A stretch of DNA of 64,000 nucleotides, taken from positions 18,026-82,025 of the IMG/VR virus record IMGVR_UViG_2778261533_000001, one strand, 5' to 3'. A program made the translations under genes and the position numbers. Numbering within the stretch: position 1 is the stretch's first letter; the number at the start of each line of letters is the position of its first letter. A model generated the notes under the pieces. It worked only from the letters and a program-made list of their open reading frames with translations, searched no databases and was not told where the DNA came from. Origin of the DNA: a virus (lineage: Duplodnaviria > Heunggongvirae > Uroviricota > Caudoviricetes). This document shows positions 29,316-32,300 of the stretch, piece after piece.

Positions 29316-32300
29316 ATACCCAAAACGTCATGAGCTACACCTCGAGTGTCCCCCTTACAAGACACAGAACGTCTGGCAAAAAGAGGTTCCACTCTGAAGC
29401 CACTGTCATGATAAAGCTCTCTGATGTTTGGCGCGCCACTGTTAGTAATGAGAACCTTTGCACCTCGACGATGAGCATCCGTCAACAGAGACACCAGGCG
29501 TTTTTGCTCTTCAAACTTAAAGTCATGACCGGAATAGTTCGTGAATCCCTCTGTATTTGGAAGCGGTTCATACGGCGGATCGCAAAAGATGACATCTCCT
29601 TCTCCGGCAGCTTCAATCACCGCTGCAAAATCACCGCATACAAACTCAGACCGCCCTTCCGCACCGAGGAAGGCTTCCATCTCCTGTAATGGGAAATACG
29701 GAGTTTTATACTTCCCATAACCGACATTGAACTCACCGGCCTGGTTGTAACGCGTCAATCCGTTAAAACAATGTCGGTTCAGGAACAAAAACGCCGCTGC
29801 GCGATGTAAATCATCATAGACTTGTTTGTTAAACGCATTCCGTACTGCCAGGTATCCTTCCTGTGTGTTGTAGTCCTGGAAGAAACGATGTGCCAGAGTG
29901 ATAAGTGAATGCGCCTCGCGTTGCAGAGTCTTGTAAAAGTTAATCAGGTCAGCATTCACATCATTTAGCAGATTTTCCTGGTATCCGGCATTCATGAAGA
30001 CAGCTCCGCCACCAACGAAAGGTTCAATCAGGCGCTTCCCTTCTGGCAAATAGCGAAAGATTTGTTCCAGAACACCAAATTTTCCACCAGCCCATTTGAA
30101 TATGGACCGTTCGAATTCTGCCGCTGGTTTAACTTTTCGCTCTTTTGTTTCACTTCCTTCTTTCTGCCGACATACGGCCTTAGTAATCCGATCGCCAATC
30201 CAGCGCATTACTGGTATTGCCATACTATTGCCGATCGCTTTGTAACGCGGTCCGTCAGCTGCAAGCATCGCGGCCTCTTCTTCGCTTAAATCAGGATAGT
30301 TATTGCGAAGGTATGCCAGTTCATCTGAAGAAACTTTTTTACGCTTTTCCGTAGGGATCAACGTATGCCCATCAGGAAAACCTTGCAGCCTTTCACATTC
30401 GACAGGGGTAAGACGGCGTATTCTACCGTCGCCGAGCAATACAATTGGTGCTTCATGGTTACATGTTAAAGTTGGTGCCGAATTATCGGTTTTTATCTCA
30501 GCCCCTCCTTGCCCATGTGCCATGGCAACTATGTTTGTATCATCGCAAGATCTGATAGCGATGTTTGAAGTATATCTGGTAGTTTCCTTCCCCTCGCCTC
30601 TGCTCGGCGCAATATCCCGGCGCACGCCTTCGAACTCAAAAAGTACCGTTGCGGGATCGAGGTCTGTTCGAGCACTTGCGACAACAAACACGCGTCGGCG
30701 TCGTTGTGCCACTCCGAAGTATTGGGCATCAAGGATTCTCCAGGCCACCTTTCGCTGCGGCCCATAAATACAACCACACTGCGGCCACTTTGGAGCATGG
30801 CAACCGGTTTTGCCATCCCACCGCCAGAACGCGTTACTTTTTCCTGATTCAGGTCGATCACCTGGTTCAAATGGCGCATCTTCTCCAGCCAATCCGGCAA
30901 GGAAACATCCGAAGGCGTTATCTGCCGATGACAAGACTCCTGGGACATTTTCCCAGACAATAACGGCTGGTTTGAGAAATGACTCAGCCCGTTTGTCGTC
31001 AATTGCATTTGCAAGCTCCACATACTTTAAAGTTAGCGCGCCACGCTCATCATCAAGCCCACCACGTAATCCCGCGATACTGAATGCCTGACAGTTATGG
31101 ACCACCGCACCATTGAGGATATAGGAATGATCACCTTCGACTTCTATGTTGTATACAGTATCTAGGCCTACCGATTTAAACTCTTTGACTGTTCGTAAAA
31201 GCATTCCATGAGCCAATCTTGATTTACGTGACAATTTCTGCGGGCAGATTGTTACCTGATAATAATTCCGTTGATTTACCACGCGATCCTCGATCACTTT
31301 TTTGGGCTCAACTTCAATAAAGCTGACCGAAGAAACATAACCACAAGTCTGTGACAACCCCGCAACGCCCCAAGCAAGCGCAGGACTAACACTATTAATT
31401 CTAAATCCCGCTTTACCACTTGGTGTCCCATCAGTATCAAGATAGCCTTGTAAAAACACATGACGCAATGGATGCGACATCACCCATGCAGGGATACGCT
31501 TAGCATGGCTTAACTCGCCAAAATGTTCATTAAGCCAATTGGCATAACACGTATCATTCAAGGTTACTTTGATGCTCCCTCGGATTTCGCTTGCCACGGA
31601 AAATATGTTTTCTGGTATGCGGCAATGAAACTTTCTCAATTTCTGGCAATTTATGCCAAAAACAACCGCCTTCTTAGATTTACCTCTCCATCTCCTAATA
31701 TATCCATCGCCAACATAAGCGCCCGCAAGATACATAGCCTGTTCTTCAGACAAGAACCGAGAACAAATATCTGGAGATGCAATATTGAAATTAGTTAGAG
31801 CGCACCATTGATATCCCGGCATATCACATGCTGCTCGCCATTCCGGTTCAGACAACAACTCTCTCTTAAAATATGTGCCATTTTTCCGGGTGTTTTGGGC
31901 TTTCCACCGAACAGCCAGGAAGGGATGGTCATTGGTTGTTCTTATACCTAAAGGCTGCCCAACGGCATTAAGTAACCCCGTATTAGCTATTTTTGAACCA
32001 ACTCTTTTTACTTGTTGTAACCGCCCGAGATGACTGACTACGTAATCGCCAGGGCAAACATCTTCTATTGGTTTATAACCATTTTTACAAAGAACCATAT
32101 GGCCCGCGGTAAAACATGGTGTCCCTCCCACCAGCACATCAGGGGATTCGATTTCCCCTGCAAGGACTTTTATGGCAAGTTTTGTCATGTCGCCAAGATT
32201 GGCGACATGAGGCCAACGGTGCGCAAGAACGGCAGATGGAAAAGGCTCAGTTTCAGCAAACCAGGCCGGACGCATACCCAAAGGTTCCCAGGCAATACTC

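Follow-up and report, generated by a model that had tools for sequence, protein, structure and literature searches.

A candidate class-1 intein with a LAGLIDADG homing endonuclease in the catalytic motif of the Dmt methyltransferase of P1-like phage-plasmids

In a 64-kb stretch of viral DNA (record IMGVR_UViG_2778261533_000001; the whole stretch analysed is referred to as the window), the gene dmt encodes a DNA methyltransferase (MTase) of 1013 amino acids (aa) in which 341 residues separate the proline from the cysteine of motif IV, the catalytic motif of a C5-cytosine MTase. What are these residues, and what becomes of the enzyme they interrupt? Our answer, to which we assign a probability of roughly 80%, is that they constitute a class-1 intein with an in-frame LAGLIDADG homing endonuclease of the two-motif type, situated between Pro77 and the catalytic Cys, and that this element both splices and homes. 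The computed basis of this reading is a clean in-frame insertion, the folds of a HINT domain and of a LAGLIDADG enzyme, the conservation of individual residues among relatives, and a patchy distribution of low diversity with mosaic flanks.

Judged by its sequence, the interrupted gene is dmt as carried by P1-like phage-plasmids (Punavirus). It is 99.3% identical to dmt of OP279344.1, and the 24 kb around it are covered to 96% by phage RCS47 with 98.4% identity. As in P1, dmt has hrdC/rdgC on its upstream side, and tRNA-Asn and tRNA-Thr come after it. The exact Dmt protein is on record as WP_097412842.1 (E. coli). The gene is composed of the following parts, with all coordinates given as plus-strand numbers of the window and all dmt features lying on the minus strand:

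29306-32347, minus strand: open reading frame (ORF) of the dmt precursor, 1013 aa plus stop; the C5-cytosine MTase domain is N-terminal and contains the predicted intein, the Dam (N6-adenine) MTase domain is C-terminal
32117-32347, minus strand: N-extein, 77 aa, running from C5-MTase motif I (SVCSGIE) into motif IV, whose first half is GGTP
32117-32119, minus strand: codon of Pro77, the -1 residue directly before the intein
31094-32116, minus strand: predicted intein of 341 aa, running from Cys1 to Asn341, with a predicted mass of 38.3 kDa
31091-31093, minus strand: codon of the +1 Cys, predicted splice-junction nucleophile and catalytic Cys of motif IV (PCQ), followed by QAFS
29306-31093, minus strand: C-extein, 595 aa plus stop, with CQAFS, motifs VI and VIII, a variable and probably target-recognising region, motifs IX and X and the Dam domain
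29309-30112, minus strand: Dam domain, aa 746-1013, with DPPY at aa 923 and a PF02086 match at aa 752-984 (about 192 bits)

The original prediction, made from the letters of the window, had placed the insertion at 31094-32116 as 341 in-frame residues of a 1013-aa Dmt, and this is exact, the feature being a minus-strand one expressed in plus-strand numbers. Read on the minus strand, the interval consists of 341 codons ending with NGAVVHN and contains zero stops. The C5-MTase motifs are likewise all present as claimed, and they occur in order: SVCSGIE (aa 8), GGTP/CQAFS (the slash marks the insertion site here and below), ENVPG (466), QRRRR (548), motif IX (647) and GNSMAIPV, i.e. motif X (706). 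The match to the Pfam family of C5 cytosine MTases (PF00145, 102.9 bits) is split over 4 stretches of the 1013-aa ORF, and between these stretches Pfam finds LAGLIDADG_3, Hint_2 and Intein_splicing.

Alleles with and without the element differ by precisely this insertion. Aligned to the Dam protein of P7 (672 aa) and to Dmt of reference P1 (754 aa), the window protein shows one clean gap of 341 columns: precisely 341 residues are missing from the two relatives, which have a contiguous GGTPCQAFS, the very motif that was predicted to be restored by removal of the insert. At DNA level, the intein-free junction reads GTGCTCGTCGGGGGTACGCCT/TGTCAGGCATTCAGTATCGCGGG, and the junction core in P7 and P1 is GGTACGCCT/TGTCAGGCA. 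The element is carried by Dmt of RCS47 (1095 aa) and by that of OP279344.1 (1013 aa), a laboratory isolate named 'P1 del res del mod'; another published genome that contains it is vB_EcoM-Ro157c2YLVW. Among 15 further plasmid alleles, 7 are occupied and 8 intein-free, and every ORF is intact; besides P7 and P1, the uninterrupted GGTPCQAFS was counted in 7 further alleles. The idea of a native domain conserved in all Dmt proteins is refuted by the intein-free alleles. The designation of the host gene as P1 dmt has to be narrowed, since P1-like phage-plasmids carry the element and reference P1 itself does not. A tblastn search of the window with the intein returned the intein itself alone (next best E 0.17), i.e. 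no second copy and no other intein.

Two observations on the gene itself may be added here. OP279344.1 (L001), a laboratory P1 derivative, has the intein together with a short variable region of P7 type, and reference P1 (NC_005856) has neither, so that stocks called 'P1' differ at dmt. Furthermore, P1-like dmt genes have a hypervariable stretch that separates C5-MTase motif VIII from motif IX (about 30428-30601 in the window, aa ~583-640), intein-free genes being observed with lengths of 2019, 2265, 2289, 2424 and 2589 nt. This stretch is probably the target-recognition region, and its variability suggests that several cytosine-methylation specificities are being shuffled among P1-like dmt genes.

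The insert can be divided into splicing and endonuclease regions, whose positions are:

31796-32116, minus strand: N-terminal splicing (HINT) region, aa 1-107; Hint_2 match at aa 1-50, strands of the AlphaFold2 model from aa 7 to aa 107
32096-32116, minus strand: block A, CFTAGHM in the translation
31925-31936, minus strand: block B TxxH, TNDH in the translation (T61-N-D-H64)
31313-31756, minus strand: LAGLIDADG homing-endonuclease domain, aa 121-268, from PF14528 (35 bits) and Foldseek
31703-31729, minus strand: LAGLIDADG motif 1, LAGAYVGDG in the translation, with acidic residue D137
31499-31501, minus strand: codon of the conserved Lys206 of the endonuclease, from the translation and family conservation
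31427-31453, minus strand: LAGLIDADG motif 2, LQGYLDTDG in the translation, with acidic residue D229
31094-31159, minus strand: C-terminal splicing blocks F and G, with Asn323 at position 4 of block F, penultimate His340 and terminal Asn341; from TIGR01443 and alignment to the C-terminus of the Spl DnaX mini-intein
31148-31150, minus strand: codon of Asn323, block F position 4

All hallmarks quoted in the original prediction, namely Cys1, TxxH, two LAGLIDADG-like motifs, the terminal block and the +1 Cys, are thus present, and their nucleotide positions were verified. Profile searches with the insert alone agreed with its assignment to inteins and LAGLIDADG enzymes. LAGLIDADG_3 (PF14528) scored 35 bits (E 1.7e-8, gathering score 22.5) and Hint_2 30.5 bits (E 5.4e-7, gathering score 28.4), and the NCBIfam model TIGR01443 (intein_Cterm) reached 25.9-28.9 bits at a cut-off of 15.6; PF14890 stayed below its threshold, and the other weak matches were all to intein-containing models. 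Searching the PDB by sequence gave marginal matches, the C-terminus of the Spl DnaX mini-intein (7cfv, E 0.0014) being the best and PI-PkoII reaching E 0.027. As a consequence of the sub-threshold PF14890 match and the marginal PDB matches, it was only through structure prediction and Foldseek that the fold could be firmly assigned.

The AlphaFold2 model of the insert, built from an 11-sequence alignment, has a predicted local distance difference test score (pLDDT) of 92.2 and a predicted template modelling score (pTM) of 0.89. Compared with the PDB by Foldseek, its first 16 matches are all endonuclease-containing inteins, with PI-SceI at the top (E 7e-17), followed by TliVMA, PhoVMA, PI-PfuI and PI-PkoII; free-standing LAGLIDADG enzymes, among them I-SceI, I-AniI and I-OnuI, appear later. 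Taken together, the profile and structure matches lie far outside what chance would give. The model is beta-rich at aa 7-107, alpha/beta at aa 124-267 and again beta-rich at aa 272-340, which in the prediction is the expected order of a HINT domain interrupted by a homing endonuclease (HEN).

At residue level, the splicing domain has Cys1, T61-x-x-H64, a block F reading VYN323IEVEGDH330, H340-N341 in block G and the +1 Cys; the endonuclease has LAGAYVGD137G, LQGYLDTD229G and Lys206. The features of a class-1 intein are therefore found together, i.e. a clean insertion, Cys1 with TxxH, His-Asn followed by a +1 Cys, and the HINT fold and profile, and as in other two-motif LAGLIDADG enzymes both helices end in an acidic residue, the PF14528 and Foldseek matches being in keeping with the alpha-beta-beta-alpha-beta-beta-alpha pseudo-dimer fold of the monomeric type. 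Position 4 of block F is usually Asp, as known from the literature on Mtu RecA (D422), and the aligned position in Spl DnaX reads VYD. Here it is Asn323; the Asp is a common but non-obligatory feature, and its absence does not exclude membership in class 1. The GC content of the intein (43.0%) is lower than that of the exteins (48.7-52.8%), a modest gap that constitutes weak evidence only.

From these features a course of events can be proposed. A precursor of 112.7 kDa would be translated, in which Cys1 would perform the N-S acyl shift at the Pro77-Cys1 bond that belongs to class-1 intein chemistry. The +1 Cys, which is the MTase's own catalytic Cys, would then attack the thioester (trans-thioesterification), cyclisation of Asn341 would release an intein of 38.3 kDa, and an S-N shift would leave the native GGTPCQAFS in a bifunctional Dmt of 74.5 kDa. 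Before splicing, the C5 domain would be without a continuous catalytic loop. The claim that the MTase is inactive until the intein is removed would accordingly hold for the N-terminal C5 domain; it does not extend to the Dam domain (aa 746-1013), which is uninterrupted, lies wholly in the C-extein, is probably independent of splicing and may work in the precursor. In line with the homing biology of LAGLIDADG enzymes, the free intein or the precursor would cleave an intein-free dmt at the sequence coding for motif IV when two P1-like genomes meet in one cell, and recombinational repair off the intein-bearing copy would insert the element along with short co-conversion tracts. Homing and repair of this kind would account for the presence of the element in about 30% of the alleles and in several dmt backgrounds.

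Relatives of the intein were collected with phmmer over 1.84 billion representative proteins, which gave 4453 matches at E<=1e-3 and, under the stricter limit of E<=1e-30, 192 representative clusters; the following counts refer to the 136 best full-length matches. Cys1 and the terminal Asn are present in 136/136, the penultimate His in 124/136, and in block B the Thr (T61) in 132/136 and the His (H64) in 136/136. A +1 Cys follows in 132/136, and in 117/136 the insertion is followed by CQ, i.e. the site is the same P/CQ site; the -1 residue is Pro in 124/136. In the endonuclease, the position of D137 is Asp in 127/136 and Glu in 2 more (acidic in 129), and D229 and K206 are each conserved in 134/136. 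Position 4 of block F is Asn in 114/136 and Asp in 20/136. Splicing and nuclease residues are thus kept in over 90% of the 136 relatives, which therefore form a large, old intein family dedicated to motif IV of C5-MTases.

The identical site is occupied e.g. in E. coli jumbo phage A4 (GGFP/C...HN/CQAWS), in gp50 of Propionibacterium phage B22, in Lactobacillus phage Nyseid and in Mannheimia phage 587AP2. In pairwise comparisons with such distant hosts, intein and N-extein identities fall together, 47-52% for the intein going with 55-68% for the N-extein, and 27-32% with 26-39%. At sequence level this indicates a long association of the intein with the C5-MTase family; incongruence between intein and extein is visible only inside the P1-like population.

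In Mannheimia phage vB_MhS_587AP2 (L023, 964-3284), where the same site is occupied at 48% identity, the C-extein is frameshifted to a separate ORF (genes 35 and 34), and a gene annotated as HNH homing endonuclease follows immediately. This arrangement looks like a decaying copy beside a second mobile nuclease. Many intein-containing methylases of cluster-F mycobacteriophages are labelled 'anaerobic ribonucleoside reductase large subunit' in RefSeq, and PHROG 26446, which matches the dmt intein over its full length, bears the same name. These labels were probably carried over by intein homology.

Within the P1-like population the element is frequent and uniform. Intein DNA was found in 133/498 dmt-carrying plasmids of PLSDB (118 Escherichia, 14 Salmonella, 1 Shigella) and in 152/480 dmt-positive complete E. 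coli genomes, i.e. about 3% of the 5426 genomes searched, and in both collections always at >=99% identity. The occupied share of dmt alleles is thus 27-32%. Occupied genes have lengths of 3042, 3288 and 3447 nt, which equal the intein-free lengths of 2019, 2265 and 2424 nt plus 1023; the element is therefore present in three length classes of dmt, which differ in the variable central region.

Diversity and flanks were compared in 19 alleles picked from a ranked list and not at random. Averaged over all pairs of the 10 occupied alleles, the intein has a diversity of 0.76%; the N-extein (231 nt) reaches 4.7%, the initial 480 nt of the C-extein 1.8% and the Dam part 3.3%. The flanks comprise at least 3 haplotypes on the N-side and at least 2 on the C-side. 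In one occupied allele (L010) the 'intein-free' haplotype has taken over within 24 nt on the downstream side, and the window allele together with four others (L006, L008, L009, L011) parts from the remaining occupied alleles beginning 7 nt upstream. A single flank site is perfectly linked to occupancy, namely the last position of the codon for Pro77 (CCA in 10/10 occupied and CCT in 9/9 intein-free alleles compared), and this mark may be a minimal trace of co-conversion or may be tied to the target of, or immunity to, the endonuclease. The intein polymorphisms comprise 13 synonymous and 15 nonsynonymous changes; the ratio of nonsynonymous to synonymous polymorphism (pN/pS) is 0.33 (exteins 0.17-0.24), a binomial test against neutrality gave p = 0.004, and zero catalytic residues are affected. 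Low diversity, patchy spread and mosaic flanks are the pattern expected of homing, and the short tracts are like those of homing co-conversion.

Several points weigh against a splicing and homing intein, both splicing and DNA cleavage being predictions for the copy in the window. The Pfam model Intein_splicing (PF14890) matches with 22 bits, under its gathering score of 35.8, and block F has Asn instead of the usual Asp at position 4. Proline at -1 is reported to be poorly tolerated by most of the natural and engineered inteins tested, Ssp DnaX being the noted exception (PMC6486613). Even if the intein did not splice, selection on the Dam domain behind it would suffice to keep the frame open. 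In dam- hosts, P1 depends on its Dam function to methylate the pac site (PMC12707154). As to C5 activity, the GenBank note of P1 Dmt says only 'perhaps at C5 cytosine', and a full-text literature search found no paper demonstrating 5-methylcytosine formation by P1 Dmt; selection for splicing in a P1-like host could thus be weak. Finally, the population sample consists of the 19 alleles taken off a ranked list, and the haplotype mosaic could be explained by ordinary recombination among P1-like genomes, without homing driven by an endonuclease.

The last point leads to the alternative that survives best, although we regard it as unlikely: the intein is competent for splicing, its endonuclease is inactive on P1-like dmt, and it was spread and shuffled through general recombination of co-resident or co-infecting genomes. 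Such recombination can produce both the flank mosaic and the three length backgrounds, and it clearly shuffles the variable region itself. The higher pN/pS of the intein compared to the exteins fits this alternative as well, and so does the occurrence of the intein-type flank haplotype in three intein-free alleles (L012, L015, L016). It accounts less easily for the endonuclease, whose two acidic residues and Lys206 have been preserved both in this copy and in over 93% of the 136 relatives, arguing for selection on nuclease function. A frequency of 27-32% at a divergence of <=1.5% over Escherichia, Salmonella, Shigella and E. albertii, too, is easier to reach with drive than without it.

A more improbable alternative is that the insertion is derived from an intein and has lost splicing, leaving the C5 domain permanently disabled, with the fusion or a product initiated downstream still giving P1 the Dam activity for packaging. 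The intact ORF would then be explained by the need for Dam, in keeping with the unproven C5 activity of Dmt, and the unfavourable Pro(-1) and the non-canonical position 4 of block F would be signs of the loss; the copy in the Mannheimia phage has decayed, with its C-extein frameshifted. Yet Cys1, TxxH, His-Asn and the +1 Cys are intact in 10/10 alleles and untouched by polymorphism, and the intein is under purifying selection (p = 0.004). Pro(-1) and Asn at F:4 are moreover the norm of the family, with Pro common to 124/136 members, and this includes the single-domain C5-MTases of A4, B22 and Nyseid, which have no downstream domain to preserve the frame. The presence of Pro(-1) throughout the family, also in genes without other reason for an open frame, argues on comparative grounds that these inteins cope with Pro; the rate of splicing could still be slow. 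A product initiated downstream would fit LPdam2, an internal late promoter that is only a prediction of the P7 record. A sigma-70 scan for an internal promoter of a Dam-only product gave 1 site compared to 7.0 expected, and the coding strand of dmt contained none.

That the insert is an accessory domain native to Dmt and immobile, or else a bacterial intein-like (BIL) domain, has next to no probability. BIL domains are HINT domains without endonuclease at variable, non-conserved positions and usually without a canonical +1 nucleophile. There is a weak sequence match to the BIL structure 2lwy (E 0.87), and the Hint_2 model also spans BIL domains, but this alternative is ruled out by the roughly 70% of dmt alleles that are cleanly without the element, by an insertion site within the enzyme's best-conserved motif and by the presence of the HEN, of His-Asn and of the +1 Cys.

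Returning to the favoured reading of a splicing, homing intein, a further and tentative step, which we think more doubtful than probable, would be to see the element as an active gene drive in mid-sweep through the P1-like phage-plasmids of Enterobacteriaceae. The endonuclease would then be a weapon against intein-free incompatible P1-like rivals in a shared cell, whose dmt it would cut, and Pro(-1) might slow splicing or make it conditional, thereby gating C5 methylation after translation. If this were true, protein engineers would also gain a natural family of inteins that tolerate Pro(-1).

Elsewhere in the window, three tRNA genes lie on the minus strand just downstream of dmt, namely Met-CAT (26763-26838), Thr-TGT (28480-28555) and Asn-GTT (28558-28633); the Thr and Asn genes are annotated in the compared stretches of P1, P7 and RCS47, too. 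Two C4 antisense RNA genes were found at 1553-1640 and 51455-51540. An isrK-type RNA (1685-1763) adjoins the first, and the c4 a1/b1 targets (51609-51661) adjoin the second, so that one 64-kb window contains two C4-type immunity modules (1553-1763 and 51455-51661).

The remark that no intein had been described in the P1 dmt gene agrees with our full-text literature search, which found no description of the motif-IV site, of the P1-like lineage or of the frequency of the intein in E. coli. In its main text, Novikova et al. 2016 leaves methylases unmentioned. Database names of the full-length protein never mention an intein and use 'Dam family methyltransferase', and fragments of the element are named 'LAGLIDADG endonuclease' or 'Hint domain protein'. 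Occupied alleles such as that of RCS47 have been public for years. The result is thus an annotation correction in a model phage lineage, by which a known kind of element is extended to a prominent host. In E. coli and Salmonella, P1-like phage-plasmids often carry resistance genes, and about 3% of complete E. coli genomes hold this unannotated HEN-containing intein; the assumption that E. coli expression hosts are free of inteins needs checking for strains with such plasmids. A phage-plasmid with full genetics is also a tractable system in which intein homing can be measured. Protein engineering has a practical interest in a native Pro(-1) junction, because most tested inteins fail with Pro, and the motif-IV family may be one of natural Pro(-1)-tolerant inteins.

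The closest known systems are the methylase inteins of actinophages. They include DNMT-1/2 in N4/N6 methylases of mycobacteriophage clusters E and F (Kelley et al. 2016, PMC5050341) and the Dorothy_75 family, for which the evolution of phage methylase inteins was analysed (Gosselin et al. 2023, PMC9957025); C-5 methylases (IPR001525) are among the intein hosts listed for actinophages (bioRxiv 10.1101/2025.01.02.630785). What they share with the dmt element is a class-1 intein with a LAGLIDADG enzyme in orphan phage MTases, a patchy distribution and signs of transfer between divergent host genes. Over its full length the dmt intein is 27% identical to the intein in gp60 of Pacc40, an N4/N6 methylase of a cluster-F mycobacteriophage that belongs to the published DNMT inteins, and it is 31% identical to the intein in B22 gp50, which occupies the identical P/CQ site. 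The actinophage cases differ in that the published ones analysed are in N4/N6 methylases and at another site, whereas the host here is a Gram-negative Punavirus and the extein a fusion of C5 and Dam domains.

PI-SceI (Sce VMA1), PI-PfuI, PI-PkoII, TliVMA and PhoVMA share with the dmt intein a HINT domain interrupted by a two-motif LAGLIDADG enzyme (E 7e-17 to 5e-9, template modelling score 0.54-0.62 on the query). PI-SceI and the archaeal HEN-containing inteins are only 11-17% identical to it, they are in other host genes and at other sites, and their chains comprise 361-537 aa compared to 341 aa; being smaller, the dmt intein is probably without their extra DNA-recognition regions. The Ssp DnaX mini-intein is reported to work with Pro at -1 (PMC6486613), and the C-terminal block of the dmt intein has its best match in a DnaX mini-intein (Spl DnaX). 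The Pro tolerance of Ssp DnaX is known from engineering tests in foreign contexts, whereas Pro(-1) of Dmt is a native junction at which splicing is predicted. Taken together, the element belongs to a large and already recognised kind of phage methylase intein and leaves the understanding of inteins unchanged; it is mildly unusual in its native Pro(-1) junction and in a catalytic Cys that would serve as the +1 nucleophile.

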